A DNA stretch of 64,000 bases from Janthinobacterium lividum (lineage in GTDB: Bacteria > Bacteroidota > Bacteroidia > Sphingobacteriales > Sphingobacteriaceae): assembly GCA_050955045.1 (NCBI GenBank), contig JBPBQV010000004.1, positions 13,496 through 77,495 on the forward strand. Reading direction: 5' to 3'. Below the pieces are notes generated by a model. That model was not told the DNA's origin. It searched no databases and saw only the letters and a program-made list of their open reading frames with translations. Below are positions 5,852 to 62,911 of the stretch, piece after piece; the stretch's first letter is position 1, and each line of letters begins with the position of its first letter. Both the position numbers and the translations under genes were made by a program.

Positions 5852-6092
5852 TTGGTAAATAAACAGTATTAGCCAATCATAATTAAATATGAGCTTGTCG
5901 AAATAAGTTTAATTTACTTTTTCAATCTGATATTTTAGCATTAAAAGAACGCAATAGCACACAATCCCAAAAAACACTGATAAAAGAAGCATTTTCATCA
6001 GTAAAAATTACACATTGTAATATTCTCTTCACGAAATAAAAATCTTAACCTAAAATTTCTATATTTAAACTCACCGTTAGCTTCAATACGAT

Positions 6093-7727
6093 TTGAAAAG
6101 AAGAGATTTTATTTACCTCAGCAGTTTAAGCCTTGGTGCTGCTGCCTTGCCTAATGTTCCGGCGTTCGGAAAATCTGTTCCCTTAGATGCTGAATATACC
6201 ACAGTTGATGCAGCCATCAAAAAAAAGCTGGCTGATGTAGCTTTAAATGCAGCGCGTTCCAAAGGTGCAACTTATACCGATGTGCGAATTGGTCGCTACC
6301 TCAACCAATCTATTATTACCCGCGAAAACAGAGTGCAGAATATTGCCAATACCGAATCGTACGGAATGGGCATTCGGGTAATTGCAAACGGTTGTTGGGG
6401 TTTTGCTGCAACAGACAAATTGGATAACGACAGCATTGCCAAAACTACAGCACTGGCCGTTGCTATCGCGAAAGAAAACTCCAGATTACTTACGGAACCG
6501 GTGCAACTGGCACCGCAAAAAGGTTATGGAGAAGTGAGCTGGAAAACGCCCATCGAAAAAAATGCTTTTGAAGTGCCCATCAAAGAAAAGGCTGATTTGC
6601 TTCTTTCTGTAAATGCCGCCGCTTTAAAAGCGGGTGCGAGTTTTATCAACAATTCTTTGTTTTTGGTGAATGAGCAGAAATATTTTGCTTCTACAGATGG
6701 TTCTTACATCGATCAGGATATTCATCGTATATGGCCAACTTTTACGGCAACTAAAATTGATGCGAAGTCAGGCAAATTTCAAACCCGGAATTCATTAAGC
6801 GCGCCGATGGGAATGGGTTACGAATATCTGATTCCGAAGGAAGAAGAAAAAATACACGGTGTAATTACGTTATATAAAAAACGGTACGATATGCTGGAAG
6901 ATGCGCAATCAGCCGTAAGAAATCTGGATGAAAAGCTGCTGGCAAAATCCATAGAACCCGGAAAATATGACATAGTTTTAGATCCAACCAACCTTTTCCT
7001 AACTATTCACGAATCTGTGGGTCATCCAACCGAGTTGGATCGTGTTTTAGGTTACGAAGCTAATTTTGCCGGAACAAGTTTTCTGACTTTGGATAAATGG
7101 GAATCTAAAAACTTCAATTTCGGCAGTCCGCAGGTAAATATTGTTGCTGATAAGCTGCAGTCAGGCTCTTTAGGCGCGATGGGATATGATGATGAAGGCG
7201 TAAAAACCAAACAATGGAATTTGATTGATAAAGGCATCTTAGTAAATTATCAAACCATCCGCGATCAGGCACATATTCTGGGCTTGAAAGAATCTCAAGG
7301 TTGTTGTTATGCTGATAGTTGGGACAGCGTGCAGTTTCAGCGTATGCCAAATGTTTCGCTTCAACCAGGAAAATCTCCGTTAAAACCTGCGGATATGATT
7401 AAAGATATTAAAAAAGGCTTGTATATGTTTGGCCGAAATTCTTATTCTATTGATCAGCAACGGTTTAACTTCCAGTTTAGCAGTCAGCTTTGTTACGAAA
7501 TTAAAGATGGCAAAATAACTGGTTTGGTTAACGATGCCGCTTATCAATCCAACACCCGCGAATTTTGGAATTCGTGCGTACAGGTTTGCGACCAGCAAGA
7601 TTACCGTTTTGGAGGCACGTTTAGCGATGGAAAAGGGCAGCCCAGCCAAAGCAGTGCTGTTTCGCATGGTTGCGCTACCACCCGGTTTAATGGTGTAAGT
7701 GTGATTAATACAGCAAGGAAAATATAA
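6093..7727 (+). CDS. TldD/PmbA-family metallopeptidase, TldD-like, Tat signal peptide, TTG start
   Basis: MKRRDFIYLSSLSLGAAALP twin-arginine leader, HESVGHPTELDR metal-binding motif, TTG at 6093. Confidence 0.8.
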   Translation: MKRRDFIYLSSLSLGAAALPNVPAFGKSVPLDAEYTTVDAAIKKKLADVALNAARSKGATYTDVRIGRYLNQSIITRENRVQNIANTESYGMGIRVIANGCWGFAATDKLDNDSIAKTTALAVAIAKENSRLLTEPVQLAPQKGYGEVSWKTPIEKNAFEVPIKEKADLLLSVNAAALKAGASFINNSLFLVNEQKYFASTDGSYIDQDIHRIWPTFTATKIDAKSGKFQTRNSLSAPMGMGYEYLIPKEEEKIHGVITLYKKRYDMLEDAQSAVRNLDEKLLAKSIEPGKYDIVLDPTNLFLTIHESVGHPTELDRVLGYEANFAGTSFLTLDKWESKNFNFGSPQVNIVADKLQSGSLGAMGYDDEGVKTKQWNLIDKGILVNYQTIRDQAHILGLKESQGCCYADSWDSVQFQRMPNVSLQPGKSPLKPADMIKDIKKGLYMFGRNSYSIDQQRFNFQFSSQLCYEIKDGKITGLVNDAAYQSNTREFWNSCVQVCDQQDYRFGGTFSDGKGQPSQSSAVSHGCATTRFNGVSVINTARKI

Positions 7728-7826
7728 GTAGAATTTAGAGGATTTAAGAATAAGGCGAAATGCTTCTTTTATCAACATAAAATCATCCAACTAACAGAAC
7801 AATCATTCATTCTAAAAACCACTATT

Positions 7827-9464
7827 TTGAAAAGAAGAGATTTTGTTTACCTCGCAGGCATGGGCTTTGGTGCTTCCATGCTGTCCAATCTTCCGGCAAT
7901 AGGCAAACCCGTTCCGCTGGATGCGCCGTCAAATTCGGTTGATGTGGCCGCCAAAAAGAAAATGGCTGATATTGCTCTTAACGCAGCCCGTTCTGCTGGC
8001 GCAACTTATACCGATGTTCGGTTGGGCCGCGCGTTAAACCAGTTTGTGGTTACCCGCGAAGACAAGGTGCAGAATATCGTTAACACCGAATCATACGGAA
8101 TGGGTATCCGTGTAATTGCAAACGGCAGCTGGGGATTTGCGGCAACCGATAAACTGGATAACGATAGCATTGCACAAACTGCAAAACTGGCTACTGCTAT
8201 TGCCAAAGAGAATTCCAGATTGCTAACCGAACCTGTACAATTAGCACCACAAAAAGGTTATGGCGAAGTGAGCTGGAAAACGCCCATCGAGAAAAATGCT
8301 TTCGAAATCCCGATCAAAGAGAAAGTTGATTTGCTGCTTGCCGTAAACGCTGCTGCCATGAAAAGTGGTGCCAGCTTTGTGGATTCGCAGTTGTTTCTGG
8401 TAGATGAGCAGAAATACTTTGCTTCTACGGATGGTTCTTACATCGATCAGGATATCCATCGCATCTGGCCAACGTTTACGGTAACTAAAATCGACCCAAA
8501 ATCCGGAAAATTTGAAACCCGGAATTCGCTTGGCGCACCAATGGGAATGGGTTATGAATATTTAATGCCGAGAGAATCCGCTAAAATAAAAGGCGGCCCA
8601 ACTGTACTTTACAAAGAGCGGTACGATATGTTGGAAGATGCACGATTAGCAACGGCACAGGCGGAAGAAAAATTAAAGGCAAAATCTGTAGAAGGCGGAA
8701 AATATGATCTGGTGCTTGATCCGACTAATCTGTATTTAACCATTCACGAATCTTCCGGTCACCCTTCCGAACTGGATCGCGTGCTTGGTTACGAAGCCAA
8801 CTTCGCCGGAACAAGCTTTTTAACGCTGGATAAATGGAAATCTAAAAAATTCAATTACGGTAGCAAACTGGTTAATATCGTTGCAGATAAACTTCAGCCA
8901 GGTTCTTTGGGTCATGTTGGTTACGATGATGAAGGCGTAGCAACCAAAAAATGGGATGTGATTAAAGATGGCGTTTTGGTGAATTACCAATGCACGCGCG
9001 ATCAGGCACATATTTTGGGTTTAAACGAATCGCAGGGTTGTTGTTACTCGGATAGTTGGAGCAACGTGCAGTTTCAACGGATGCCCAATATTTCGCTGGA
9101 ACCCGGAAAAACACCACTTAGTGTTGCCGACCTGATTAAAAATGTAGAAAAAGGAATTTATATTATTGGCGATGGCTCCTACTCTATCGATCAGCAACGG
9201 TACAATTTCCAGTTTAGCGGACAGCTTTTTTACGAAATTAAAAACGGCAAAATTGCAGGTATGCTCAAAGATGTGGCTTATCAATCCAACACACAAGAAT
9301 TCTGGAACTCCTGTTCTGCGATTTGTGATGAACGTGATTATCGTTTAGGCGGAACTTTTTTTGACGGAAAAGGCCAGCCAACCCAAATCAGTTCTGTTTC
9401 GCACGGCGCGGCAACCACGCGTTTTAATGGTGTGAATGTGTTGAATACGGCGCGAAAAATATAA
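7827..9464 (+). CDS. TldD/PmbA-family metallopeptidase, TldD-like tandem paralogue, Tat signal peptide, TTG start
   Basis: MKRRDFVYLAGMGFGASML leader and HESSGHPSELDR motif. It shows high identity to 6093-7727 along its whole length. Confidence 0.8.
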   Translation: MKRRDFVYLAGMGFGASMLSNLPAIGKPVPLDAPSNSVDVAAKKKMADIALNAARSAGATYTDVRLGRALNQFVVTREDKVQNIVNTESYGMGIRVIANGSWGFAATDKLDNDSIAQTAKLATAIAKENSRLLTEPVQLAPQKGYGEVSWKTPIEKNAFEIPIKEKVDLLLAVNAAAMKSGASFVDSQLFLVDEQKYFASTDGSYIDQDIHRIWPTFTVTKIDPKSGKFETRNSLGAPMGMGYEYLMPRESAKIKGGPTVLYKERYDMLEDARLATAQAEEKLKAKSVEGGKYDLVLDPTNLYLTIHESSGHPSELDRVLGYEANFAGTSFLTLDKWKSKKFNYGSKLVNIVADKLQPGSLGHVGYDDEGVATKKWDVIKDGVLVNYQCTRDQAHILGLNESQGCCYSDSWSNVQFQRMPNISLEPGKTPLSVADLIKNVEKGIYIIGDGSYSIDQQRYNFQFSGQLFYEIKNGKIAGMLKDVAYQSNTQEFWNSCSAICDERDYRLGGTFFDGKGQPTQISSVSHGAATTRFNGVNVLNTARKI

Positions 9465-9478
9465 TCAGAATTCGATCA

Positions 9479-9633
9479 GAATTTAGAGAATTTAAGAATA
9501 AGGCAGAATGCTTCTTTTATCAGCCTAAAAACTTAAGCTGTTATTTTTCTTCTGATTTTAGATCGATACAAACACCTATTTTTATTGAATAAAAGAAGCA
9601 TCTTGTTAATTCTCAAATCTCCTAAATTCTGAT
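9479..9633. repeat. element of about 155 nt with imperfect terminal inverted repeats of about 45 nt (MITE-like or long stem-loop)
   Basis: The left arm gaatttagagaatttaagaataaggcagaatgcttcttttatca (9479-9522) is the imperfect reverse complement of 9589-9633. A solo left arm is also present at 7731-7774. Confidence 0.45.
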
Positions 9634-9664
9634 TAAATCAGTGTAATTAATAATTTAAAAAGAA

Positions 9665-10999
9665 ATGCCAATTTTAAATAAAGAACAAGCCCAGGCTTTG
9701 TTAAAAAAAGTGCTCAGCTATTCTAAAGCTGATGAATGTGAAGTAAATTTAAGCGGCTCTGATGGCGGAAACATCCGTTATGCACGCAGTGCGGTTTCTA
9801 CCAGCGGCGGCATCAGTCAAACCAGTTTGGTGGTTTCATCCGCTTTTGGGAAAAAGCTGGGCACTGCAACCATCAACGAATTTGACGATGCTTCGTTGCA
9901 AAAAGTAGTGCAAAGAGCAGAAGAGCTGGCGCAACTGGCACCAGAAAACCCAGAGTTTATGTCTTTTTTAGGGCCTCAAAATTATCCGGAATCTAAAACT
10001 TTTATTCAATCTACGGCTAATATCAACCCAAAACAACGCGCTGATGCGGTGGCAGAAAGCTTGCAGATTGCAAAAAACGGCAATTTAACTGCTGCCGGTT
10101 TTTATGATAATACAGCTGGTTTTTCGGCAATGATGAACTCGAAAGGTTTATTTGCTTATCGCACGGCTACCAACGTTAACTTTAATGTAACGGTAAGAAC
10201 GCCAGACGGAAAAGGTTCCGGTTATGCTTCTAAAGGTTATAATGATGTTACCAAACTGGATGTTGCGACGGCTACTAAAATTGCAGCACAAAAAGCAGCC
10301 GGATCTGCAGCTGCAAAAGCTATCGAACCAGGAAAATATACGGTAATATTAGAACCATCCGCAGCAATTGTTCTCCTCGAAAACCTATTTTTTAATTTTG
10401 ATGCACGTTCTGCGGATGAAGGAAGAAGTTTTATGAGCCTGCCAGGTGGAAAAACAAAACTCGGACAAAAAATGGTTGATGAACGGGTAACTTTTTATTC
10501 TGATCCGCAAAATGTGGATTTGCCAACCAGCACCTGGAGCAGCGACGGTAGGCCGCAAGAAAAAGTTGCCTGGATAGATAAAGGCGTAGTTAAAAACCTG
10601 TATTATTCGCGTTACTGGGCGCAAAAAAAAGGTTTAAAAGCAGTACCGCAACCAAATGGTGTGATTATGGAAGGCGGAACGGCATCGTTGCAAGATTTGA
10701 TTAAAAGTACCGAAAAAGGAATTTTAGTAACACGACTTTGGTACATCCGTTCTGTTGATCCGCAAACTTTATTGCTAACCGGTTTAACCCGCGACGGTAC
10801 TTTTTATATTGAAAACGGACAAATTAAATTCCCGATAAAAAACTTTCGCTTTAATGAAAGTCCAGTTATTATGCTGAATAACCTGGAAACGTTAGGCAAA
10901 CCGGAACGAACCGTGAGCGGAGAATCCGGAATGCACGCCATGATTCCGCCGATGAAGATTCGTGATTTTACATTTTCTTCATTGTCGGATGCTGTGTAA
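9665..10999 (+). CDS. TldD/PmbA-family protein, PmbA(TldE)-like, no signal peptide
   Basis: Typical length and family-wide similarity (EPGKYTVILEP, LWYIR, TRDGTF). There is no N-terminal hydrophobic or RR leader. Confidence 0.75.
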   Translation: MPILNKEQAQALLKKVLSYSKADECEVNLSGSDGGNIRYARSAVSTSGGISQTSLVVSSAFGKKLGTATINEFDDASLQKVVQRAEELAQLAPENPEFMSFLGPQNYPESKTFIQSTANINPKQRADAVAESLQIAKNGNLTAAGFYDNTAGFSAMMNSKGLFAYRTATNVNFNVTVRTPDGKGSGYASKGYNDVTKLDVATATKIAAQKAAGSAAAKAIEPGKYTVILEPSAAIVLLENLFFNFDARSADEGRSFMSLPGGKTKLGQKMVDERVTFYSDPQNVDLPTSTWSSDGRPQEKVAWIDKGVVKNLYYSRYWAQKKGLKAVPQPNGVIMEGGTASLQDLIKSTEKGILVTRLWYIRSVDPQTLLLTGLTRDGTFYIENGQIKFPIKNFRFNESPVIMLNNLETLGKPERTVSGESGMHAMIPPMKIRDFTFSSLSDAV

Positions 11000-11010
11000 T
11001 TAACTTTTTT

Positions 11011-11096
11011 GTCATTTCGACCAACGGGAGAAACCTTCATCAAAGCAGTATAATTGTATTATTTGAGGAAGATTTCTCCCTTCGGATTGAAATGAC
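11011..11096. repeat. palindromic intergenic element (GTCATTTCGA...GAGAAA / TTTCTC...TGAAATGAC arms)
   Basis: Arms 11011-11038 and 11068-11096 are near-perfect reverse complements. The element lies between the convergent PmbA-like and MFS genes. Confidence 0.6.
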
Positions 11097-11106
11097 AATT
11101 GGGCAA

Positions 11107-12276
11107 TCAAACATTATTTCTCAAAGCAATCAAACCCAAAATCGGCCCGAAAGCCAGCACCGGAAAAACGTAAATTGGATCATATTTCAGCAGCAAACTA
11201 CTGGTTAACTGGATACTGATTATGGTGATGGAAAAGCCGATACAATTCACAATAGTTAGCGCGCTGCCTTTCAGTTCCGGCGGTGCGTGCAAAGCCGTCA
11301 GGGTTGAAAACTGAGGCGAATCAGCCGACACATTCATGTTCCAACAAAAAAGTACCGATAAAAACAGTATCGGCCCAAATTGAAAAAAAAACGGCGAACA
11401 TAAACAACACAAACCAGACAACAGCAACGCACCAAAAGCAACTTTTTTGCTGCCGATTTGCTGCGAAATGTAGCCGCCCAAAATGCACGATAAGCAGCCG
11501 GAAGCAATAATCAGGAAGGAAAACAAAGGTACATTCAGGTTATAACTTGGATGCAAGCGAAGATAAGTTTGCAAGATGAAAGGCAGAAACGCCCAAAGTG
11601 TATAAACTTCCCACATGTGGCCAAAGTAGCCGAAAGCAACAGACCGGAAATCCTTCTTTTTGAAAACACTAAATATTCCTTTAAAATGAACTTTTGCGTT
11701 GATTTTGCGAAACGGTCCATCGGGCACAAAAAGCAGCACCAAAAATCCGCCGGTTAAAGCACAAACAGACGTAATGGTTAACAAGGATTTCCAGGGCAAT
11801 ATCGCACCAAAAGTTTTTAATAAATGTGGAAATGCGGTTCCTAACACAAGTGCGCCAACCAGAAATCCTAATGCTTTTCCTAATCCGTTTTCAAAATAAT
11901 CTGCTGCGATTTTCATCCCGACAGGATAAATTCCGGCCAGAAAAAAACCTGTAAAAAAGCGCAGTAAAAGAAGCATCTGCAAATCTGGATGACCGAAAGT
12001 AATGCTGAAATTGAAGGTGGCCGCAAGCAAAGCATTGATGAGAAATACTTTGGATGGCGAAAAACGATCTGTGATGGAAAAGATAGCAAAAAGCAAGGTT
12101 CCGGCAATAAAACCCAATTGCACAGATGAAGTTAAAAAACCAAGTGCGGAAGCCGGAATATTTAATTCCCGAACCAAATCAGGCATCACGGCGTTGGCTG
12201 CAAACCACAACGACGTGCAGGCAAACTGCGAAAAAACGATCAGCGGCAGAATGAATTTTAGCTTTTGGTTGAACAT
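11107..12276 (-). CDS. MFS transporter
   Basis: About 12 hydrophobic segments in 389 aa, with the typical MFS loop pattern. Confidence 0.7.
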   Translation of the reverse strand: MFNQKLKFILPLIVFSQFACTSLWFAANAVMPDLVRELNIPASALGFLTSSVQLGFIAGTLLFAIFSITDRFSPSKVFLINALLAATFNFSITFGHPDLQMLLLLRFFTGFFLAGIYPVGMKIAADYFENGLGKALGFLVGALVLGTAFPHLLKTFGAILPWKSLLTITSVCALTGGFLVLLFVPDGPFRKINAKVHFKGIFSVFKKKDFRSVAFGYFGHMWEVYTLWAFLPFILQTYLRLHPSYNLNVPLFSFLIIASGCLSCILGGYISQQIGSKKVAFGALLLSGLCCLCSPFFFQFGPILFLSVLFCWNMNVSADSPQFSTLTALHAPPELKGSALTIVNCIGFSITIISIQLTSSLLLKYDPIYVFPVLAFGPILGLIALRNNV

Positions 12277-12304: not shown

Positions 12305-12334
12305 ATACTGTTTTTATCGGCATAAAAACAGTAT
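12305..12334. repeat. REP-like hairpin, arms ATACTGTTTTTAT / ATAAAAACAGTAT, possible terminator
   Basis: Perfect 13-nt arms with a 4-nt loop (cggc). It lies downstream of the stop of the 12408-13376 minus-strand gene. Confidence 0.5.
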
Positions 12335-12407: not shown

Positions 12408-13376
12408 TTAGTATCGTTTCACACTAAAATCAGAAATGCCGCCTTTTAAACTCAGGTAGATTTTTTTGGGTGCAGCAGCAAAACCGGGCGTTTCGTATTG
12501 GTTGTTGCCTTTAGATTCAAAACCATCAAAATTTTTGGAAGACAAACCAGTTTTACTTTCGATATGACAAGCTGCGCCGGTTGGTACGCTGATGTTAACT
12601 TCGGAAACGCCGGTAGAAATCGCAACCGTTGTGTTGTTTACGGTAGGCTGACCAAGCTTAAAATCCATCGAAGCAGCGCCGCCTTTTACATGCAAATTCC
12701 TGATTTTAAACTTCGTTAAATCCAAATCCAATTTGCTTGCTCCTGCTGTAATATCAATATTCCACTCCGGATTTGGATTGAGTTTTATCGTTGCCACACT
12801 TCCTTTATCACTATCCCAGTTAAAAGAGTTTCTGGAATTGTGCATCGTAAAATTAATTGCTTTTCCGGAGTCTGTTGCTGAAGTGTTGAATAGAAACCTG
12901 CCCGATAATTCATGTGTAGCAGCACTAAATAATTCGGCTGTTGTATCTTGCAAAGTGTAAGTAGCACCTCCGCCACGAAGGTTTAGGGAAGCTACTTTTA
13001 CCTCAGGCGTATAAGGTTCTTTGTACGTGCTGCTTCCTTCTAACTTAACTACGTCTCTGCTATCATCATCGTCGTTGTTATCATCAAAAAAAGTATTATT
13101 GTTAAAATTGTGGCCAAAAAAACGGTTTTCTGTTGGTAAAGTACCACGATAAATAACCAAGCCAAACAGTATGGCAAAAACCAGTACTTTAATTGCCGTG
13201 GCCGTGTTAGAGCTTTGGTGCGAGAAAACCAGATTTACGCCCCAGAAAATGAGAAATAAAGGCCAAAGGCTGATTAAATTTTGCCAGTGAAAATTGATTA
13301 CCTGAAAATTATCCAGTAAAAACAGTATGCCAATGCCCAGCAAAAACAAACCGGTAAATAATCTGTCGCGTTTCAT
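12408..13376 (-). CDS. LiaF-like / DUF2154-type cell-envelope stress protein (N-terminal TM segments plus C-terminal beta-rich domain)
   Basis: N-terminal TM helices, a poly-Asp linker and a repetitive beta-strand C-terminus. It lies directly downstream of a PspC-domain gene. Confidence 0.55.
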   Translation of the reverse strand: MKRDRLFTGLFLLGIGILFLLDNFQVINFHWQNLISLWPLFLIFWGVNLVFSHQSSNTATAIKVLVFAILFGLVIYRGTLPTENRFFGHNFNNNTFFDDNNDDDDSRDVVKLEGSSTYKEPYTPEVKVASLNLRGGGATYTLQDTTAELFSAATHELSGRFLFNTSATDSGKAINFTMHNSRNSFNWDSDKGSVATIKLNPNPEWNIDITAGASKLDLDLTKFKIRNLHVKGGAASMDFKLGQPTVNNTTVAISTGVSEVNISVPTGAACHIESKTGLSSKNFDGFESKGNNQYETPGFAAAPKKIYLSLKGGISDFSVKRY

Positions 13377-13907: not shown

Positions 13908-13930
13908 AGCTTCTTTTATGATCTAAATTT

Positions 13931-14635
13931 TCAAATTTCTCCTGTTGCGGTTTGGATAATCAGCTCATCAACATTAGCACCTGCGCTCATTTTTAAACAA
14001 TTGATTACGGCAGCAGCTACATCGTCCGGCAGTACAAATTTTTCTGGCGGAACCGTCGTTCCGGCCCAAGAATTTGTGAGCGTTGATCCGGGCAAAATAG
14101 CAGTTACTTTTACCTGATAAGCTTTCATTTCTTCCCGCATTGTATGATTAAGACCAAGCTGCGCAAACTTTGTTACAGAATAACTTCCCGCATTTACAAC
14201 AACTTTTTTTGATGCTACCGAACAAATATTAAAAATATGGCCAGCGCGTGCAGCCATTAGTTTTTTACCAAAATAACGATACAAATGGTAAGCAGACATC
14301 AGGTTTAAATCCAGCTGTTTTTGCAGGGCATTTTCTTCTTCGTCCAAAATACTTCCGGGCAAAAACATACCGGTGTTGTTTACAATAATCTCTATTGATT
14401 TCAATTCCTGCTCGGCTTCGGCCGCAAAAGCGAGCACATCAGCTTGCAAACTACAATCAGCTACACGGGTAAAAACTTTTATATTTGGGTTGATGTGCAG
14501 CAATGCTTCTTTTACCTGCAATAAATCTTCTTCATTTCTGGAACAAATAGCCAGGTTGATACTTTGTTTAGCCAGTGCTTTGGCAATTGCCAAACCAATT
14601 CCTTTAGTGGTTCCTGTAATCAGTGCGTTTTGCAT
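13931..14635 (-). CDS. SDR-family oxidoreductase
   Basis: TGTTKGIGLAIA cofactor motif and YSVTK catalytic motif. Confidence 0.85.
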   Translation of the reverse strand: MQNALITGTTKGIGLAIAKALAKQSINLAICSRNEEDLLQVKEALLHINPNIKVFTRVADCSLQADVLAFAAEAEQELKSIEIIVNNTGMFLPGSILDEEENALQKQLDLNLMSAYHLYRYFGKKLMAARAGHIFNICSVASKKVVVNAGSYSVTKFAQLGLNHTMREEMKAYQVKVTAILPGSTLTNSWAGTTVPPEKFVLPDDVAAAVINCLKMSAGANVDELIIQTATGEI

Positions 14636-14705
14636 GGATAAAATTAGCTTAAAAACAGCATCGGCACTTAAATTGAAAAAATGTATTTTTAGAAAATTTT
14701 AAAGA

Positions 14706-19294: not shown

Positions 19295-19320
19295 AAGCTC
19301 ACTAAATTTTAGGTTATAAA

Positions 19321-19356
19321 AGAAGCATCTGTGTAAAAACAGGTGCTTCTTTTTTG
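19321..19356 (+). terminator. Rho-independent-type terminator whose 5' arm is a copy of the AAAGAAGCAT motif
   Basis: agaagcatctg (19321-19331) pairs with caggtgcttct (19340-19350) with one mismatch, followed by tttttg. Confidence 0.7.
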
Positions 19357-19370
19357 TTTTAAGCACACTA

Positions 19371-19450
19371 TCATTTTGAACGTAGAGAGAAATCTTCTCT
19401 AAATAATGATTAAACTGTTATAATGAAAATTTCTCTACTGTTCAAAATGA
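19371..19450. repeat. palindromic intergenic element of the same family as 11011-11096
   Basis: Arms tcattttgaacgtagagagaaatcttc (19371-19397) and gaaaatttctctactgttcaaaatga (19425-19450). Confidence 0.6.
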
Positions 19451-19593
19451 CAAAAATCAAATTCCATACTTCTTTTACTAACCAAATTTCCTCAAACTTA
19501 ACTTAATCAACTTTCAGCTTTTTTAATAGCTTTGAAATCTTTAAAAACAGCAATCCTAATTACTGTTTTTATGGCATAAAAATCTTGATCTAA

Positions 19594-20979: not shown

Positions 20980-20996
20980 AAGAAGCATTGAAGAAA

Positions 20997-24452: not shown

Positions 24453-24467
24453 AACAGATTTAACCTG

Positions 24468-24511: not shown

Positions 24512-24560
24512 TTTATAATTTACGATTAATATTAATTCATATAAAAACTAATTTACAAGT

Positions 24561-33825: not shown

Positions 33826-33847
33826 CCTTTGTATTTTAATGATAAAA

Positions 33848-50004: not shown

Positions 50005-50016
50005 AAACAGTATCGA

Positions 50017-50715: not shown

Positions 50716-50734
50716 TTTAATGCTTCTTTTACCG

Positions 50735-52084
50735 ATGAAAAAACTTCATTTCATATTCCTGCTCGCTTCGTTTTTGCTGGTTGAAAATACCTTTTGTCAA
50801 CAAAAAGATTTCCATAACTGGGCAGCTACGCCGCCGATAGGCTGGAACAGTTGGGATTGCTACGGACCAACTGTTGTTGAAAGTGAAGTAAAAGCCAATG
50901 CTGATTACATGGCTAAAAACCTGAAAAAAGCAGGGTGGGAATATATTGTGGTGGATATCCGCTGGTATGTGGGAAATGATAAAGCGCATGGTTATAATCA
51001 AATCGATCCGGATTATGTGCTGGATAAATACGGTCGTTTTCAACCTGCGGTAAACCGTTTTCCTTCGGCTGCTGGTGGAAAAGGCTTTAAACCGCTGGCA
51101 GATTATATCCACAGTAAAGGCTTAAAATTTGGTATTCATATTATGCGCGGCATTCCGGTGGAAGCCGTGAAACGCAATACGCCGATTTTGGGAAGCACCG
51201 CAACGGCCAACCAGATTTACACCACAGAATTGCAATGTAAATGGTTGAAAGATATGTACGGCGTAGTTGCAGGCAAACCGGGCGCACAGGAATACTACAA
51301 CTCACTTTTTAAACTGTACGCCTCCTGGGGTTTGGATTTTGTGAAGGTTGATGATCTTTCTCGGCCGTATCATACCGAGGAAGTAGAAATGATCCGTAAA
51401 GCGATTGATCTATCCGGAAGAAAAATATTACTGAGCACTTCGCCGGGAGAAACGCCTTTGGCCGATGCCGAACATGTGGCTGAAAATGCCAATATGTGGC
51501 GCACCGTTGATGATTTTTGGGATAACTGGAAAATGCTGAAAGATCATTTTGATGTTTTTGAACGCTGGAACGCTTACCGAAAACCGGGTGCCTGGCCGGA
51601 CGGCGATATGTTGCCTTTGGGCAGAATTGGTATCCGTGCAGAAAGAGGCGATAATCGTATGTCGGCTTTTACAAAAGATGAGCAATATACGCTGATAACG
51701 TTGTGGACGATCTTCCGTTCGCCGCTGATGTTTGGCGGAGATTTACCTTCCAATGATGCTTTTACGCTTTCGCTGCTTAATAATGCAGACGTAATTTATG
51801 TGCTTAAAAACAGCATCAACAATAAACAATTATTTAAAACAGAACAAGCTGTTGCCTGGATTGCAGATGATCCGAAAACAGGTGATAAGTTTCTGGCTGT
51901 TTTTAATCCGACAGATCAAACTGAAGCAAAAAAAATCAACATTAATTTGAGTGAATTGGGTTTCAAATCAAAAGTTCAAATTAAAAACCTTTGGAACCAC
52001 CAGAATTTAGGAAGTTTTTCCGATGAGTTTTCGCCGCAAATTAATCCTCATGGCGCAGGTTTATACCGGATTTCTTCCAAATAA
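50735..52084 (+). CDS. GH27 glycoside hydrolase (alpha-galactosidase / beta-L-arabinopyranosidase family)
   Basis: PPIGWNSWDCYG and DFVKVDD motifs. I chose the ATG at 50735 (MKKLHFIFLLASF signal peptide) rather than the track start at 50687, which overlaps araD. Confidence 0.75.
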   Translation: MKKLHFIFLLASFLLVENTFCQQKDFHNWAATPPIGWNSWDCYGPTVVESEVKANADYMAKNLKKAGWEYIVVDIRWYVGNDKAHGYNQIDPDYVLDKYGRFQPAVNRFPSAAGGKGFKPLADYIHSKGLKFGIHIMRGIPVEAVKRNTPILGSTATANQIYTTELQCKWLKDMYGVVAGKPGAQEYYNSLFKLYASWGLDFVKVDDLSRPYHTEEVEMIRKAIDLSGRKILLSTSPGETPLADAEHVAENANMWRTVDDFWDNWKMLKDHFDVFERWNAYRKPGAWPDGDMLPLGRIGIRAERGDNRMSAFTKDEQYTLITLWTIFRSPLMFGGDLPSNDAFTLSLLNNADVIYVLKNSINNKQLFKTEQAVAWIADDPKTGDKFLAVFNPTDQTEAKKININLSELGFKSKVQIKNLWNHQNLGSFSDEFSPQINPHGAGLYRISSK

Positions 52085-53605: not shown

Positions 53606-53646
53606 GATTTTTAGGCGGTAAAAGAAGCATTAGATTTCCTAAACAC

Positions 53647-55036: not shown

Positions 55037-55105
55037 TCGGCAATGATAAACTTTTAGCCACAATTTGCATCAACACAAATTTTTACCTGCTAAAAGAAGC
55101 ATTGG

Positions 55106-55570
55106 TTATTTTTTGGCGAGTGCTTGCTCTGCAAAACGCATTAAATCATCAGCTTTCATGAAACCCATTGTGCCGAGAACCGGTTTAGCGTTTTCATCAA
55201 AAATAATTAAGGTTGGATAAGCCTGAATTTTCCAAAGTTCGGCAAGTTTCGGTCCTTGTCCTTTTTCCATATCAATGGAAACATTGATAAATTTATTATT
55301 AAAAAAATCTGCTACTTTTTTATTGCTGAAAGTTTGCAGTTTCAGCATTTTGCACGGGCCGCACCAGGTGGCGTAGCAATCCACAAAAATATACTTTTTT
55401 TGTGCCGATGCTTTTTTTACAGCGGCATTCCAATCATTCTCCACAAAAACAATTTTATCCGCAGCAATTAACCTTGTGGAAACTGTTTTTTTAACCGGAG
55501 CAATGGGTTTAAAAGAAGAAACCGAAAAAAACAGTGGTAAAAGAAGTATCAAACTATATTTCCTGATCAT
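55106..55570 (-). CDS. thioredoxin-family protein, secreted
   Basis: WCGPC active site and a signal peptide. Confidence 0.85.
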   Translation of the reverse strand: MIRKYSLILLLPLFFSVSSFKPIAPVKKTVSTRLIAADKIVFVENDWNAAVKKASAQKKYIFVDCYATWCGPCKMLKLQTFSNKKVADFFNNKFINVSIDMEKGQGPKLAELWKIQAYPTLIIFDENAKPVLGTMGFMKADDLMRFAEQALAKK

Positions 55571-55630: not shown

Positions 55631-56779
55631 TTACTGTTTAGGCGGAGTTACAACGTTTAAAAAGCGTTCTACTGTATAAGTTGCCAATTGTCCGCTTGGG
55701 CCGTTTAAAGTATAATCGCAACCATGCGTTGCCCAGGGTAAACTTAAAAAGTAATGTTTTATTTTAAGCTGATTCAGTTTTGAGTTGAGGTGAACGCTAT
55801 GCTGATAAGAAACCAAAACATCATTTTTTCCATGAATGAGCAAAGTTGGAACTGATTCTTTATGAACATATAAAACAGGCGAACTAGCTGCATATTTTGC
55901 CGGAACCTGGTTGTAAGTTCCGCCCAGGTAAGCCTCCATTACTTTATGCGAATTTAAAACCAATGGATTAGACGGAACAAAATAACCGAATATCATATCT
56001 GCCGGCCCGTAAAAATCGATTACTCCTTTTATGCCTTCATTTTTTAAAGTGTAAGCCGCTAGCAAAGCAATTTGTGCACCGGCCGATCTTCCTAATAAAA
56101 CGAAGTTATTAGTATCAATTTGTAGTTTTTCTGCGTGATCTTTTAAATAGTGAATAGCGCTTTTAACATCTTCTACCGGTAACGGATTTTGATATTCAGG
56201 AGCCAGCCGGTAATCAATAGAAGCTACCTGATAACCTCTCTTCGCCAGATAACTGTTCAGTTCGGGCAATTGCTTGGCATCTCCCCCACTCCAGGAACCA
56301 CCGTGAATAACAATTACGCAAGGTTTTTTAGATGCTGTTTTTATCGAATAAAAATCTAACTGTAAACTAATTTCAGGATAAGATTTATATGTGAAAGTTT
56401 GAGGCTGAATTGCTTTGTCATCAATTCCGTAAAACATAGAAAAGAAAGAAAAAGGCTGATTAAGATGATTGATTTTTAAGTCGGAAGCCTGATTTCCTAA
56501 AGCTGTTTTTATTTCATCCGAAAGTTTTGATGCAATTGCATAAACTCTAAAAACAGGTGATAAAAACAGTATTAAAGTAACGGTTGCCAACGCATTTCCT
56601 ACTTTTTTATACCCGCTTGATTTGCTTTTAATTAAAAACAGGATGAGCAGAATACCAATAAAAATGTATGGAAATTCGGTTATAAGAATAGCTAAAAGCC
56701 AGAGATGATAAGTAGGAGCAGGAAAAACAGTTAATAAAGAAATTAGGAATAAAAGAAAGATCAGAATAAAACGAACCAT
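55631..56779 (-). CDS. alpha/beta hydrolase (esterase/lipase, HGG type) with N-terminal membrane segments
   Basis: HGGSW oxyanion motif and GRSAG nucleophile elbow. Confidence 0.8.
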   Translation of the reverse strand: MVRFILIFLLFLISLLTVFPAPTYHLWLLAILITEFPYIFIGILLILFLIKSKSSGYKKVGNALATVTLILFLSPVFRVYAIASKLSDEIKTALGNQASDLKINHLNQPFSFFSMFYGIDDKAIQPQTFTYKSYPEISLQLDFYSIKTASKKPCVIVIHGGSWSGGDAKQLPELNSYLAKRGYQVASIDYRLAPEYQNPLPVEDVKSAIHYLKDHAEKLQIDTNNFVLLGRSAGAQIALLAAYTLKNEGIKGVIDFYGPADMIFGYFVPSNPLVLNSHKVMEAYLGGTYNQVPAKYAASSPVLYVHKESVPTLLIHGKNDVLVSYQHSVHLNSKLNQLKIKHYFLSLPWATHGCDYTLNGPSGQLATYTVERFLNVVTPPKQ

Positions 56780-57556: not shown

Positions 57557-58090
57557 TCGGTAATTGTTGTTTGAGTTATCTTGTACGACAACGCAGATAA
57601 TTTAATTTGAAATATAACTCGAATTTAAGTTTAATAATATGCACGCCGCAAAAAAGAGTAATCGAAGAATTTAATTCATAAACAGTGATTTAAACCTCAA
57701 TTTAATTTTTATGTCAAAAGTTTATTCAATAGGTAGTATTTTTTAATCTATAACATTAAAAAAACGATAAAAATCAAGATACAGCTATTCAAAATGCTCT
57801 TAATTTAGAAATAAAAGTAGTTCTACCATTAAAATCCTAATTGAGTTAGACTAGTTTAATACTTAAATAGTTAAAATACCCTGATATAAAATATACTTTT
57901 AAAAAAACTTACTAGAAAAATGTATATTTTATTATTAACCAAGCAAACTTTTTTATTAACTAATAAAAAAATGAAAAAATAATTTGCATTTTTAAAACTT
58001 AGTGTTAAATTTACACTATCAAGAAAAAAAAATATTTCTGTTTTTTAAAAAAGTCTTCTCATAATTTAGGTTTATAATTGGTTAAGTAAA

Positions 58091-58120
58091 AGCTCCTGCC
58101 CATCAGGAGCTTTGCTTTTT
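58091..58120. terminator. hairpin terminator in the AT-rich spacer
   Basis: agctcctg (58091-58098) pairs with caggagct (58104-58111), followed by ttgctttttt. Confidence 0.6.
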
Positions 58121-58132
58121 TAATAAAAATTC

Positions 58133-58167
58133 AAAAAAAATCCCAAATAAGTTTTACTTATTTGGGA
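58133..58167 (-). terminator. Rho-independent-type terminator of the small lipoprotein gene pair
   Basis: tcccaaataag (58141-58151) pairs perfectly with cttatttggga (58157-58167). An A8 run at 58133-58140 gives a T8 run on the minus strand. Confidence 0.7.
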
Positions 58168-58190
58168 GACAAGTTACTATATGGTTACAG

Positions 58191-58367
58191 TTATAATTTA
58201 TTTCCTCGACCTCTAAACATAGAAATTACCCAAATAATTACTGCAATTACTACTACTACAGCTATAATACCAATTGCGGCTCCAGCTTTAAAAACTCCGC
58301 CAACAACAGAGCAACTGTTTAACACCATCAGTGTTACAACAAGCATAGAAAGGTTTAATTTTTTCAT
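58191..58367 (-). CDS. small lipoprotein with C-terminal TM helix (58 aa), paralogue 1; not in the ORF track
   Basis: Manual translation: MKKLNLSMLVVTLMVLNSCSVVGGVFKAGAAIGIIAVVVVIAVIIWVISMFRGRGNKL*. It has a lipobox (LNSC) and a terminator immediately downstream. Confidence 0.6.
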   Translation of the reverse strand: MKKLNLSMLVVTLMVLNSCSVVGGVFKAGAAIGIIAVVVVIAVIIWVISMFRGRGNKL

Positions 58368-58442
58368 TTTAATTATTATTTTAATTGTGAGCGTAACAGA
58401 GATCAGTAATTTATTGTTTTGAACCAGGATTAATTAAAGCTT

Positions 58443-58610
58443 TTATTTACGTTTAGACCTTTTAGAAATGATCCAAATCAGTAAACCTAAAATTATAAAA
58501 ACAGAGTAAATTCCCATCTTAAAACCGGCTCTAAAAATGCCGCCAACAGCCATACAGCTTTGTAGAGTAGTAGTCAAAACAAGTAAGCCAAATAAAAACT
58601 GTTTTTTCAT
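58443..58610 (-). CDS. small lipoprotein with C-terminal TM helix (55 aa), paralogue 2; not in the ORF track
   Basis: Manual translation: MKKQFLFGLLVLTTTLQSCMAVGGIFRAGFKMGIYSVFIILGLLIWIISKRSKRK*. It has a lipobox (LQSC) and shares the VGGxFxAG and IWxIS motifs with paralogue 1. Confidence 0.6.
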   Translation of the reverse strand: MKKQFLFGLLVLTTTLQSCMAVGGIFRAGFKMGIYSVFIILGLLIWIISKRSKRK

Positions 58611-58753
58611 GCTGTAATATTATAAAATAAGACTGATTTGAAAAGATGTATTTTCATTAGTTATTTAAGCAGGGTTTTTGCGGATGATCTTCGATTTAAA
58701 ACAATCAATCTTCCTGGTTTTTTGTTCTTTCCAACAATTAATATTTTATCAGT

Positions 58754-59607: not shown

Positions 59608-59680
59608 TTTTAATTGTTTAAATTTTTAATATACTGATTTTTTGCTGATAAAAACAGTATGCGATTAACTGATACTTCTT

Positions 59681-60865
59681 TTACGGCAATTTTATTTTAT
59701 AGATAGCATAAGGCGTTGTACGTTTGTTGATGCCTGCATTATGCTCTGGTGTTTTCTGGATTTGAGAGCAGCTTACATATAAATATCCGTCTTTAGAAAC
59801 CGAATAACTATCCGGCCAGATTAAGCGCGCATCTTTAACTAAAGTAGTCATTTTTAAATCCGGACTGATTTTTACGATCGATGAATTTTGCGGATCACCT
59901 AAATACAAGTTTCCTTTTTTGTCAAATTCCATTCCGTCGGTAACAATGTATTTCCCTAAATCTTCTACATAACCTTTCAGTTTTTGTCCGCTTAAAGTAT
60001 CGTTACGTAAATATTCTGTTTTAATGCGATACAATTTGGTATCTGTTAAAGGTTTGTAATACAACAAATCGCCATCCGGAGATAAAGCAATTCCGTCCGA
60101 ATCAAATTTAACTGGCTGTCCGTCTTGCTGCAATTCTTTTCCATCAATCAAAAATTTAAAATCTTTATCTGTATGAACAGAATAATGGTTTTGCAGTAAT
60201 TGACGTGCTTTTCCGGATTTTAAATCAACTACCACAATTCCGCCAGTTCCGGAATTGGTGATATAAGCAAACTGTCTTTTGGTATCTACACGAACATCGT
60301 TTAAATAACTGTGCTCATCGGCAACACCTTCAAAAGTATAAGTACGTTCTACTTTGTTTGTGCCGAGGTTAATTTTAACCAATTTGTGACTCTGCTGATA
60401 AACTTTATCCAACTTTGGTGCAGCGGGATCAATCACCCACATTACATCCTGATCATCAATATAAGGAGCCTGCACGCAAACCCATTTATTTTTGCCGCTT
60501 TCGCCTGGTTTCCAACTATTCATAGCTGCATCAGGATAAGGCTGAGTTTTATTTCCGAGCAAAACCTCTACCAAAGCATATTTATAAATAGAAGGTGTCC
60601 ACAGTGGATAATTGGTAAATAAACGATTTTTGGCAGAAATAGCTACGCCGGTTATCTGATAGATTGAATCAGCAAAAACCTGCTCCAGTTTTACAGAAGT
60701 ATTTCCATTAGGATTATCTTCCGGTTTGTGTTCGGTATTATTGCTGGTTGCAGCAGCAGGATTTTTGTTGGCATCACTTGCAGCTGATTGATCGCCAAGT
60801 TTATTGTTGTTACAGGAAGCAAAACCTGCCGCCAGCACAACCATATAGGTTAATATTTTTTTCAT
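59681..60865 (-). CDS. major royal jelly / yellow-family (MRJP) beta-propeller lipoprotein
   Basis: Lipobox FASC, and NDVRVD...AYITNSGTGGIVVVDLKSGKARQLL, which is typical of bacterial MRJP-family proteins. Confidence 0.65.
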   Translation of the reverse strand: MKKILTYMVVLAAGFASCNNNKLGDQSAASDANKNPAAATSNNTEHKPEDNPNGNTSVKLEQVFADSIYQITGVAISAKNRLFTNYPLWTPSIYKYALVEVLLGNKTQPYPDAAMNSWKPGESGKNKWVCVQAPYIDDQDVMWVIDPAAPKLDKVYQQSHKLVKINLGTNKVERTYTFEGVADEHSYLNDVRVDTKRQFAYITNSGTGGIVVVDLKSGKARQLLQNHYSVHTDKDFKFLIDGKELQQDGQPVKFDSDGIALSPDGDLLYYKPLTDTKLYRIKTEYLRNDTLSGQKLKGYVEDLGKYIVTDGMEFDKKGNLYLGDPQNSSIVKISPDLKMTTLVKDARLIWPDSYSVSKDGYLYVSCSQIQKTPEHNAGINKRTTPYAIYKIKLP

Positions 60866-61014: not shown

Positions 61015-62190
61015 ATGTCAAAAACTATTAAGTTTATTACCAGTAATATCTTCACTACTGTTATTTGGTTTGCTTTAAGCTTTTTTGCTGTTATCAATCA
61101 GGCTTTCCGGCCTTCCAGCAATAATTATCAGGTTTATAAATATGCGTTCATCAACCTGATTCATCAAGCTAATTTATATACACCACAGCCAGAACACTTT
61201 TTAGATCTTAACCATTATGGGCCATTGTTTGCCTTACTGATAGCGCCTTTTACCTTTTTTCCGGATGGTTTAGGCAGTATCATCTGGACAATGACTAACG
61301 CTTTTGTACTCTACAAAGCCATACACATGCTTCCTTTAACTTTAAATCAGCGTTGTGCAGTTGTGTTAATTTGCGCTCATGAATGTATGACTTCTTCTTT
61401 CGGCACACAAATTAACCCAATGGTTGCAGCAGGTATCATTTTTAGTTTTGTTTTGATTAAAAACAAGCAGGATTTCTGGGCAGCGTTAGCAATTGTGGCT
61501 GGAATTTACATCAAAATATATGGTATTGTTGGACTTGCTTTTTTCTTTTTTTCTCAAAACAAGTTTAATCTGATAAAAGGCTTGGTATTTTGGGGCTTAC
61601 TATTATTTATACTGCCGATGCCTTTCTCCTCACCAGGATTTGTGATGCAGAGTTATCATGATTGGTATATAAGTTTATCAGAAAAAAATGCCAGTAATGC
61701 CTTTACAATTATGCAGGATACCAGTGTAATGGGGATGATTCGCAAAATATTTCAATATCCGCAATTACCAAATTTACTTGTTCTCATTCCGGCTATAGTG
61801 ATTTTTGCTACTTCTTATTTAAATATAAAAAGCTTCAACAAAACGACTTATCAGTTACTGGTACTTTCATCAACACTTATTTTTACTGTTATATTTAGTA
61901 CCAGTTCAGAATCGCCAACTTATATTATTGCTTTTGTTGGAGTAGGCATTTGGTTTATAAATTTGGACAGACCTGTTACCCGATTAGAAGTTGCTTTGCT
62001 TGTATTTGCACTAATAATCACCAGTTTTTCACCTTCTGATTTGTTTCCAAAATACATCAACAAAACCTATATTAAACCTTACGCCTTAAAAGCACTGCCT
62101 TGTTTTTTAATATGGCTAAAAATTGTTTACGAAACGGTGAGCCGAAATTTTTTAGCTACACCATCAGCAACAAAGCTTAATGATGTTTAA
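61015..62190 (+). CDS. polytopic membrane protein, DUF2029 / GT87-like glycosyltransferase
   Basis: About 10 TM segments with a GT-C-like layout. The family call is tentative. Confidence 0.5.
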   Translation: MSKTIKFITSNIFTTVIWFALSFFAVINQAFRPSSNNYQVYKYAFINLIHQANLYTPQPEHFLDLNHYGPLFALLIAPFTFFPDGLGSIIWTMTNAFVLYKAIHMLPLTLNQRCAVVLICAHECMTSSFGTQINPMVAAGIIFSFVLIKNKQDFWAALAIVAGIYIKIYGIVGLAFFFFSQNKFNLIKGLVFWGLLLFILPMPFSSPGFVMQSYHDWYISLSEKNASNAFTIMQDTSVMGMIRKIFQYPQLPNLLVLIPAIVIFATSYLNIKSFNKTTYQLLVLSSTLIFTVIFSTSSESPTYIIAFVGVGIWFINLDRPVTRLEVALLVFALIITSFSPSDLFPKYINKTYIKPYALKALPCFLIWLKIVYETVSRNFLATPSATKLNDV

Positions 62191-62803
62191 AAAACACAAG
62201 ATAGATTTGTTTGATAATATGATAAGCGGCAAAACTCCAGAACAAAATAGCAATACTTTTATTGATAATTTTACTGCTTAAAGCAAATTTACTTTTGATA
62301 TAATTGGCTGATTTGGCGTAAATATATAAACACAAAAACGCACCAAGCGCAGATCCAATACTAAAAATAATTAGTTCAAAACCAGAAGCTTCGATCCACT
62401 CATGTGTAATTAAATAGGTGCCGGTAATCAGCCAGAACGGAATTTGCATCGGGTTTAAAAAACCCAGAATAATGCCATATTTAATGCTGTCTTTATCAGA
62501 GTAATTTTTGCTTGGTTCTTCATTCCGATTACGCCAGGTTACAAAACCGAGTACGCTAAACAACACAACCATTACCCAATCAATAATGGTAGATAAATTC
62601 ATTTGTTGTGATAGCCAATTGGCCCCGTGCATAACCAACAACGTAAAAAAGAACTCTATAACCGAAAATGACGAAATAAAATAAACGGCTTGTCTTAAAC
62701 CACGATTGATGGTAATTTGTACCAGCGTTAAATTGATATTTCCGGGAGGAACATAACCAATAAAATTACAAACAACACCCAGAAAAAATGTCAGAAAAAT
62801 CAT
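62177..62803 (-). CDS. LysE-family translocator
   Basis: 208 aa, 6 TM segments, N-terminal GYVPPGNINL segment. Confidence 0.75.
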   Translation of the reverse strand: MIFLTFFLGVVCNFIGYVPPGNINLTLVQITINRGLRQAVYFISSFSVIEFFFTLLVMHGANWLSQQMNLSTIIDWVMVVLFSVLGFVTWRNRNEEPSKNYSDKDSIKYGIILGFLNPMQIPFWLITGTYLITHEWIEASGFELIIFSIGSALGAFLCLYIYAKSANYIKSKFALSSKIINKSIAILFWSFAAYHIIKQIYLVFFKHH

Positions 62804-62911
62804 GCAGCAAAAGTAATCAGGTTTTTTTAAACAGAAAGTTTACCAGAGTTTGGTTTTTACAAACATTTTGCAACTTTTAGTGCATAAAAGAAGCATGTTG
62901 CTAAAAAAAGA

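Follow-up and report, generated by a model that had tools for sequence, protein, structure and literature searches.

The locus considered here raises the question of why a bacterial chromosome should carry the same short word about once per kilobase, on both strands, between genes as well as inside them. It is a 64,000-nt stretch deposited as Janthinobacterium lividum (contig JBPBQV010000004.1, positions 13,496 to 77,495, assembly GCA_050955045.1), henceforth the window, by which we mean the whole stretch at its full length, and the word has the form TAAAA-(GAAG or ACAG)-YAT. An initial annotation had proposed either a family of repetitive extragenic palindromic (REP)-like elements bound by a specific protein, or a signal resembling the DNA uptake sequence (DUS) of Neisseria and the uptake signal sequence (USS) of the Pasteurellaceae. 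We found these two readings to be partly supported, the uptake-like one in the main and the REP-like one in part. The finding is genuine and unusual, and the word would appear, by analogy, to work like an uptake sequence. The analysis established its anatomy, over-representation and lack of polarity, its origin by substitution in genes, its conservation where flanks have diverged and its confinement to one lineage; the machinery that reads it would most likely be one of DNA transfer or uptake.

Allowing at most two mismatches, GATAAAAGAAGCAT matches the window 38 times, where 100 dinucleotide-preserving shuffles gave a mean of 1.18 and a maximum of 4; the over-representation first claimed for the motif is thereby borne out. 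By unbiased k-mer counting, TAAAAGAAGYAT and TAAAAACAGYAT lead the 12-mers of the window, with 21 copies of TAAAAGAAGCAT and 10 and 8 of the sister TAAAAACAGTAT/CAT. Together the two words account for 46 exact copies, 31 of them intergenic in a window that is 88% coding. For wider counts we used a pool of 1.03 Mb, roughly 0.2 genome equivalents if genomes are about 5 Mb, and found 818 exact copies in it. The word is 12-14 bp long and is spread over the genome at about one copy per kilobase, genes included. Nearly all the coordinates initially assigned to copies were correct; the copy placed at 62884-62897 in fact lies at 62883-62896, and the exact copies at 4437-4450 and 20133-20146 had been omitted.

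Alignment of 40 copies gave a full unit, AWTTTW-N4-GA-TAAAAGAAGCAT, that is longer than the 14-mer first described. The unit contains a mini-dyad, TTTTA-N6-TAAAA, with a hypervariable spacer; a specific tail, either GAAGCAT or ACAGYAT, adjoins it at one end or at both. The 7-nt tail is conserved, there is no GTAG, and most copies carry a single full half-site. There are only two words: GAAG and ACAG dominate and the intermediates AAAG and GCAG are rare. The core is ATGCTTC (sister form ATRCTGT), followed by the A/T tracts TTTTA and TAAAA, one helical turn apart over a free 6-bp spacer. Whole operon spacers are filled by the unit at 13908-13930, 30970-30996 and 50716-50734, and its TAA serves as a stop codon at 20977, 50002 and 59683.

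Placement of the copies is strongly biased towards intergenic DNA and, within it, towards gene ends. In the pool, 74% of copies lie in the 18% of sequence that is intergenic, with densities of 5.3, 4.1 and 3.0 per kb of convergent, co-directional and divergent spacer, respectively. Within 40 nt of a gene boundary there are 187 copies on the stop side and 66 on the start side, many overlapping the stop codon, so that the initial remark that copies sit near stop codons holds statistically; no fixed distance to promoters or start codons was seen. Strand use is even (728 plus, 697 minus), orientation relative to the dominant gene strand is balanced (231 versus 225), and per-contig polarity is absent (chi2 = 55.5 on 65 df). 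This lack of strand polarity led us to reject a polar word of the Chi or FtsK-orienting (KOPS) type. Such words are likewise short, over-represented and present in genes by substitution; they are, however, strand-polarised with respect to replication, whereas the word here is unpolarised within contigs and strongly intergenic.

Of particular weight are the copies inside genes. In the pool, 213 of the 818 exact copies (~26%) fall within open reading frames (ORFs), where they use every frame without an in-frame TAA and lie mostly more than 40 aa from the N-terminus. The ORFs of the window, which had not been selected for this test, hold 15 copies against 0.67 in synonymous-codon shuffles (maximum 5 in 500). 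In-coding enrichment is about 100-fold and comes at a cost to codon and amino-acid choice. The peptide [VIL]KE[AV]x, for example, occurs 64 times in the pool where 9.4 are expected, and is coded by the word 50 times against 2.4 by codon usage; word-coded [MI]LLL occurs 25 times (0.14 expected), NASF-type peptides 29 times (1.0 expected) and VKTA-type peptides 23 times (0.3 expected). The signal-peptide copies reading I/M-L-L/F-L that were noted at the outset are thus real, but they represent merely one of several in-gene frames. Two copies in a GH43 arabinanase gene show how such sites arise. The first (31928-31939, plus strand) encodes NAVFT, aligned as HNAVFT where solved homologues have HNSAYT or HSSAYQ, and the second (32335-32346, minus strand) encodes DKNSI against DEKGR or DDHGQ; because both lie in ungapped conserved blocks relative to the solved arabinanases, they were made by point substitution and not by insertion. 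In-gene copies are products of substitution, and they reshape codons and peptides. As a control, a REP-like hairpin family in the same DNA (GTCATTTCGA...GAGAAATC) had 0 of 21 copies in ORFs across the pool.

Several comparisons indicate that the word is kept while its surroundings diverge. A syntenic metagenome contig, L082, was found by protein homology and not by the motif, and its 820-aa protein is 87% identical to that of the window. All nine intergenic copies in the shared 13 kb are kept in L082, and identity is 96.2% at motif positions (101/105), as against 62.2% in the rest of the intergenic sequence and 84% in coding sequence. Conservation of the motif relative to its flanks in related genomes, which had been suggested as a check, is therefore borne out. 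Of the 162 copies compared over 13 orthologous locus pairs, 129 are conserved, while 28 have been changed by substitution and 5 fall in gaps. Identity within the footprint is about 0.93 for the 12-mer, about 0.86 for the AT tract, 0.55-0.65 for the spacer and about 0.76 for the flanks. The word is kept in L082, L084 and L085 and in at least 120 metagenome contigs: a metagenome scan with a 19-base version of the unit returned at least 120 contig stretches (946 kb), nearly all with about one copy per kb, and some of these stretches are 81-83% identical to segments of the window.

Beyond this group of sequences the word is scarce. At 80 AraA loci of other Bacteroidota genera, Pedobacter, Mucilaginibacter and Chitinophagaceae included, we counted 0-1 copies per 21 kb, compared with 17 here; none of the 80 loci had a comparable saturating word, and no dialects were seen in the neighbouring genera. 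Among 2.9 million viral contigs in IMG/VR, the 19-base pattern occurred in only one, as a single copy. The gene content of the window is that of Bacteroidota (SusC/SusD, GH43/GH51, araBAD and a NUDIX-type AraR). Among the matches listed, the nearest named relatives are Sphingobacteriaceae, and the best match to AraA in species-representative genomes is 78% identical. The carrier is one uncultured Sphingobacteriaceae lineage of soil/freshwater type, and the word is restricted to it. The window DNA is present in NCBI as contig JBPBPF010000041.1 (GCA_050921655.1), with proteins labelled 'MAG: ... [Janthinobacterium lividum]'; in view of the Sphingobacteriaceae gene content and nearest relatives, the J. 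lividum record is seemingly mis-binned or mislabelled.

We asked whether the word owes its conservation to pairing. Copies had been described as often paired into terminator-like hairpins, with the added judgement that it was the sequence, rather than the pairing, whose conservation needed explaining. The description proved mostly wrong and the judgement was confirmed, the latter being the key point. The folding energy of single units, -0.7 to -2.8 kcal/mol, does not improve on that of shuffled sequence, while paired forms fold strongly. The two arms of 82 short dyads often differ in type, and their R/Y positions occur in free combination (G-C 24, A-C 21, A-T 20, G-T 13), from which we conclude that pairing is not the conserved property. 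An RNA or single-stranded DNA hairpin under pairing selection was excluded on the same grounds. One symmetric double change, between L085 (3330-3360, ATGCTG...CAGCAT) and the window (45372-45401, ATACTG...CAGTAT), looks compensatory when taken alone, but this appearance was not upheld, since the two positions vary independently over the 82 dyads. The motif is a double-stranded DNA signal rather than an RNA element.

That the copies are ordinary terminators, or mRNA-stabilising or RNA-processing hairpins that share sequence by chance, is very improbable. The strong folding of paired forms and the clustering near stop codons would suit such hairpins, and three motif loci do score as terminator-like (19318-19353, 24467-24512 and 33846-33889); only these three qualify, however, most copies are single and unfolded, and the prevailing pairing is tails-out (ATGCTTCTTTTA...TAAAAGAAGCAT) and lacks a T-run. 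None of the strong terminators in the window includes the word. A separate terminator adjoins it at 53619 and 20977, and in L082 the terminator has changed and the word has not. The equal use of both orientations relative to transcription, the lack of arm covariation and the many copies in genes also argue against hairpins of this kind. No window match was obtained in Rfam 15 at gathering thresholds, nor any relevant match at E<=1 in five motif-rich loci, and a tRNA search returned nothing.

Other candidates were set aside. Bacteroidetes-type promoters consist of a -33 TTG and a -7 TAnnTTTG. Motif flanks showed no consistent match to this pattern in either orientation, nor a fixed distance to starts, and a scan for sigma-70 promoters scored no higher than shuffles. 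The palindrome here, CTGT-N18-ACAG, differs from the LexA/SOS box, CTGT-N8-ACAG. A literature search with the literal sequence returned only primers and E. coli SOS-box constructs, which share ATACTGT by coincidence.

Our best reading, which is plausible if short of probable, is that the word is a DUS/USS-like signal kept by biased DNA transfer and recombination. A sequence-biased process would act on the word itself and hold it at about one copy per kb across the chromosome of one lineage. Fragments that bear the word would be preferentially taken up, or otherwise transferred horizontally, and would then undergo homologous recombination, the same molecular drive as for Neisseria DUS and Pasteurellaceae USS. 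Copies would build up where they are tolerated, past stops, in operon spacers and between convergent genes, while those inside genes would build up by point substitution in frames encoding acceptable peptides. Inverted doublets, tandem arrays and units of 94 and 170 nt would represent local duplications or small elements carrying the word. We rank this reading first because it is the only established mechanism known to us that yields the whole pattern. That pattern, a short exact word at about one per kb, unpolarised, mostly intergenic past stops, present in genes by substitution, with decaying flanks and confined to one clade, is the one described for neisserial DUS (PMC2397512). The DUS-like reading of the initial annotation thus gains substantial support from in-gene substitution, lack of polarity, conservation relative to flanks, DUS-like density and placement, and USS-like architecture.

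The likeness extends to both known systems, with differences. DUS are 10-12 nt long and are read by the minor pilin ComP. The word here differs from the DUS of the Neisseriaceae in being of unrelated sequence and from another phylum, in being bipartite with AT tracts and a dyad, and in having two sister words per genome, mostly tails-out pairs that are not terminators, and copies carried in 94- and 170-nt units. What is shared is a short exact word at about one per kb on both strands, conserved in related species and confined to one clade, mostly intergenic, often past stops, often in inverted pairs and also in genes (PMC2397512); published DUS spacing is ~1.1-1.5 kb, and copies are described as 'majority intergenic' and 'just after the stop codon' (PMC2397512). 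Pasteurellaceae USS, with a 9-nt core and two AT-rich tracts within <=32 nt, resemble the unit in architecture: in both, a specific core precedes a pair of AT tracts that are less conserved and lie in helical phase, one turn from each other (PMC12616744). They resemble it also in having in-gene copies that shape peptides and two types that differ at adjacent core positions; the two USS types, however, occur in different species and not, as here, in one genome, and the AT tracts here form a mirror pair, TTTTA/TAAAA. No report of an uptake signal for Bacteroidota was found in the literature searched. Within the same phylum, Riemerella columbina (Flavobacteriaceae) prefers its own DNA in uptake competition (PMC7965970).

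A number of observations weigh against an uptake-like signal. Dyad symmetry, two coexisting words and proliferating 94/170-nt units are atypical of DUS and USS. The dyad, TTTTA-N6-TAAAA, would suit a dimeric binding protein better than a receptor of pilin type; two discrete sister words with few intermediates in each genome differ from the usual single dominant DUS dialect; and the intergenic bias is stronger than that of USS. A regex search of the 1.03 Mb for type IV prepilin and PilB-type ATPase signatures found none, a weak negative given that the pool is only about 0.2 genome equivalents. Sharp spacing classes, with gaps of 6, 20, 32-35 and 63-72 nt, exist in the tails-out orientation only, and in the 94-nt class an asymmetric interior is conserved between many unrelated, non-orthologous loci. 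In contigs whose names begin with JAABU, the 94-nt doublet lies within a nested palindrome of ~170 nt with the outer repeat AGAGCCTGTTTAAA, present in 36 copies of 140-190 nt (36 per Mb), and relatives contain 54-nt tandem arrays. These size classes, composite units and arrays point to duplicative spread, which drive alone does not explain.

Size classes, composite units and arrays of this kind speak for a non-autonomous element resembling a REPIN (a REP doublet) or a miniature inverted-repeat transposable element (MITE), in which the 12-mer plus AT tract (~25-27 bp) would be the terminal repeat or binding site of some transposase (RAYT-like single-copy or DDE), the doublet would replicate and singles would be decayed halves. 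Such elements share with the word a high copy number, discrete inverted doublets, a place at gene 3' ends, and restriction to a lineage with vertical conservation at orthologous sites, as published for REPINs; 5 of 162 copies differ between relatives by indel, and the RAYTs of Bacteroidetes (subclass 2.6) go with atypical, weaker structures without GTAG. The 94-nt and ~170-nt units also recall MITEs such as the Neisseria Correia element: their inverted repeats are terminal or nested, their interiors are conserved and their copies are dispersed over intergenic DNA. We nevertheless judge this origin unlikely. REPs are strictly extragenic and form a stable palindrome with a GTAG-type foot, whereas a quarter of the word's copies lie in genes, by substitution, its single units fold like shuffles and its arms do not covary; a separate, strictly intergenic REP-like hairpin family is moreover present in the same genomes. 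Old copies that are 96% identical amid flanks at 62% are unlike decaying transposon copies. Single words and in-gene copies far outnumber composite units, and the window genome has the word and diverged doublets of 55-94 nt (9508-9601, 25923-25980, 42597-42684 and 45283-45337) without the outer repeat AGAGCCTGTTTAAA and without evident target-site duplications at the doublets. The ends of the ~170-nt unit have TTAA-like bases, which could belong to the repeat. A search of the pool for an autonomous parent element between outer repeats yielded only a few pairs 0.4-4 kb apart and no candidate parent, and a 159-nt composite unit had no match in plasmid or phage records. A regex search of the 1.03 Mb for the RAYT/IS200 HUH...Y (Y1) signature, using published patterns (PMC6006769), also found none, a weak negative in a fragmentary genome sample. 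The REP table for Bacteroidetes RAYTs holds no sequence similar to the word, and subclass 2.6 REPs have GC-containing stems of 8-10 bp, unlike it (PMC6006769). The REP-like, protein-bound family first envisaged thus keeps its discrete inverted doublets and dispersed 94/170-nt units, but lacks a hairpin in singles, and it leaves in-gene substitutions and the upkeep of old copies unexplained.

The dyad invites a further explanation, namely that the copies are a site array for an abundant dimeric DNA-binding protein, whether nucleoid-associated, a global regulator or insulator, or recombinase-like, each monomer of which would read TAAAA-(GAAG or ACAG)-YAT with the 6-bp spacer uncontacted, the sites being held by purifying selection. 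In its 12-6-12 layout the site recalls tyrosine recombinase core sites, and also the way half-sites are spaced in CRP/FNR-type operators. A strong plus a weak half-site, or two full half-sites, around a hypervariable spacer would fit such a protein, as would arms that do not covary, which suits recognition of double-stranded DNA, and sites conserved at orthologous positions irrespective of orientation. This explanation is distinctly doubtful all the same: a density of about one site per kb and a roughly 100-fold in-coding enrichment are unlike the regulators and nucleoid proteins known to us, there is no fixed distance to promoters or starts, most copies have one full half-site, and the duplicated 94/170-nt units are left unexplained.

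Returning to an uptake-like signal, it is possible, although we would not call it probable, that the word is the first uptake or transfer signal outside Proteobacteria: a bipartite dyad word that would favour conspecific DNA, read by a receptor unrelated to ComP-type pilins and possibly dimeric, of recent origin (sister genera are without the word), and with palindromic elements hitch-hiking on it. To our knowledge, only two proteobacterial families have firmly established sequence-specific uptake signals. It has long been asked how such signals originate, and also whether they are selected or simply driven. With a third and independent case from another phylum, the matter of origin could be tested by comparison, and the case would be a young one, absent from neighbouring genera and distinguished by its two sister words and its dyad layout. 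It would also point to a new kind of receptor, and it would mean that homologous exchange is frequent in an environmental lineage of Bacteroidota. Should the word instead belong to a mobile or protein-binding element, it would still be unusual, and the rewriting of codons and peptides in housekeeping genes would need a new explanation. The word is in addition a sharp marker with which to bin contigs of the lineage.

Individual copies in the window illustrate the range of forms. Full units touch a stop codon at 29347-29372 and 30114-30139 (both plus strand), lie 3 nt from one at 55077-55102 (plus), and adjoin, yet stay outside, a canonical terminator hairpin at 62872-62896 (plus). The full unit at 53609-53630 (plus) is 13 nt past the AraA stop and ahead of an unrelated terminator hairpin; L082 retains the unit but has another terminator sequence there. 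A copy at 20975-20988 (plus) supplies the TAA of the aspartokinase stop codon and is followed by a separate terminator hairpin, and an ACAG-type copy at 27363-27376 (plus) touches the stop codon of the other strand. In operon spacers, a degenerate unit (aaatttagatcaTAAAAGAAGCT) exactly occupies 23 nt at 13908-13930 (minus), and a full unit occupies 27 nt at 30970-30996 (minus) and ends 4 nt before the next ATG. An ACAG-type copy at 50002-50013 (plus), identical in L082, provides the TAA stop of the ribulokinase (FGGY) gene 3 nt before the next ATG; a GAAG-type copy at 50720-50731 (minus), also identical in L082, lies within the 19 nt that separate the aldolase stop from the melibiase start. 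At 59631-59683, an imperfect ACAG-type palindrome is joined by a GAAG-type copy that contributes its TAA as a stop codon.

Among paired forms, tails-out doublets measure 94 nt at 9508-9601 (gap 70; no size class is commoner in the pool), 58 nt at 25923-25980 (gap 34, in a divergent intergenic region), 88 nt at 42597-42684, where both 12-mers are kept in L082 and L085 and the interior has diverged, and 55 nt at 45283-45337, between convergent genes and kept in L082. The arms of this last doublet had been given as perfect over 17 nt at 45283/45321; they are perfect, but over 19 nt and at 45283/45319. Palindromes of 12-N6-12 form and ACAG type are perfect at 12305-12334, 28 nt upstream of an MFS gene start, and at 45372-45401, which is kept in L082, and in L085 as ATGCTG..CAGCAT; one at 33853-33882, 27 nt upstream of a GH43 gene start, has one mismatch. 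A hybrid at 39913-39942 has an ACAG-type left arm and a GAAG-type right arm and cannot pair fully. Tails-in pairs were found at 19542-19571 (ACAG type, one mismatch in each) and at 24467-24512 (GCAA variant); the latter, with its A and T runs, forms a bidirectional terminator-like hairpin between convergent genes, and its 44-nt palindrome, 24468-24511, is perfect as originally reported. In one of the three terminator-like cases, the unit at 19304-19353 (plus), the 12-mer is the 5' arm of the hairpin. Single copies comprise GAAG-type ones at 5979-5992 (plus, divergent intergenic region) and 19466-19477 (minus), and ACAG-type ones at 14650-14661 (plus, divergent intergenic region), 23813-23824 (plus) and 63501-63512 (minus, with one mismatch and a start codon 2 nt downstream).

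Copies in hydrophobic coding segments include those in the signal peptides of a lipoprotein (4439-4450, MLLL), the GH43 enzyme (32778-32789, MLFL) and a thioredoxin-like protein (55538-55549, ILLL), two in an MFS transporter gene (11359-11370, ILFL; 11965-11976, MLLL), one in the N-terminal hydrophobic segment of a LiaF-like gene (13317-13328) and one in an esterase gene (56561-56572, ILFL), all on the plus strand. The esterase gene has a second copy on the minus strand (56332-56343, IKTAS). Further in-gene copies lie in the genes for an M23 peptidase (3460-3471, minus), a short-chain dehydrogenase (14503-14514, minus), aspartokinase (20135-20146, plus) and melibiase (51805-51816, plus, identical in L082).

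Among relatives, the ~170-nt MITE-like unit was seen in L097, L172 (e.g. 6960-7160), L181, L154, L150 and other loci of the JAABU contigs, some with an insert of ~18 nt (CCTGAGCATATCGAAGGA). L151 contains, at 1400-1545, three tandem 54-nt units with one full motif unit each (cacccaaaaaataggtgaTAAAAGAAGCATctgtaactt...), followed by an inverted copy.

The window also holds features of independent interest. A complete arabinan/arabinose utilisation locus, syntenic in L082, spans 31800-53605 and comprises genes for GH43 and GH51 enzymes, a SusC/SusD pair, a DUF4964/GtaA-like hydrolase, a NUDIX-type AraR, ribulokinase, an aldolase-class epimerase, melibiase and AraA. Three tandem TldD/PmbA-family paralogues lie at 6093-10999, the first two with 75-82% DNA identity. 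A full unit (TTTTA-N4-GATAAAAGAAGCAT; 7760-7782, minus strand) is found 32 nt past the stop of the first. These two paralogues have a duplicated 3' flank that includes the motif, agaatttagagRatttaagaataaggcRgaATGCTTCTTTTAtc, which recurs, inverted, at 9588-9640. Positions 1-3300 have a GC content of 0.34, a gene for a KAP-family P-loop NTPase (1626-3155) and no motif copies; this motif-free, low-GC DNA, a short stretch, may be recently acquired, which would fit a signal that marks a lineage's own DNA. Hairpins of the GTCATTTCGA-N-GAGAAATC family, unrelated to the word, occur at 4559-4594, 11009-11100 (an inverted pair) and 19368-19430; the family is found mostly as inverted pairs 60-180 nt apart and looks like a conventional REP/REPIN type. 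Finally, a gene-poor, AT-rich and motif-free segment of 1.2 kb (57557-58753) contains two strong terminator-like hairpins and two small paralogous hydrophobic ORFs of 51 and 55 aa (NCBI calls), at about 58191-58346 and 58443-58610.

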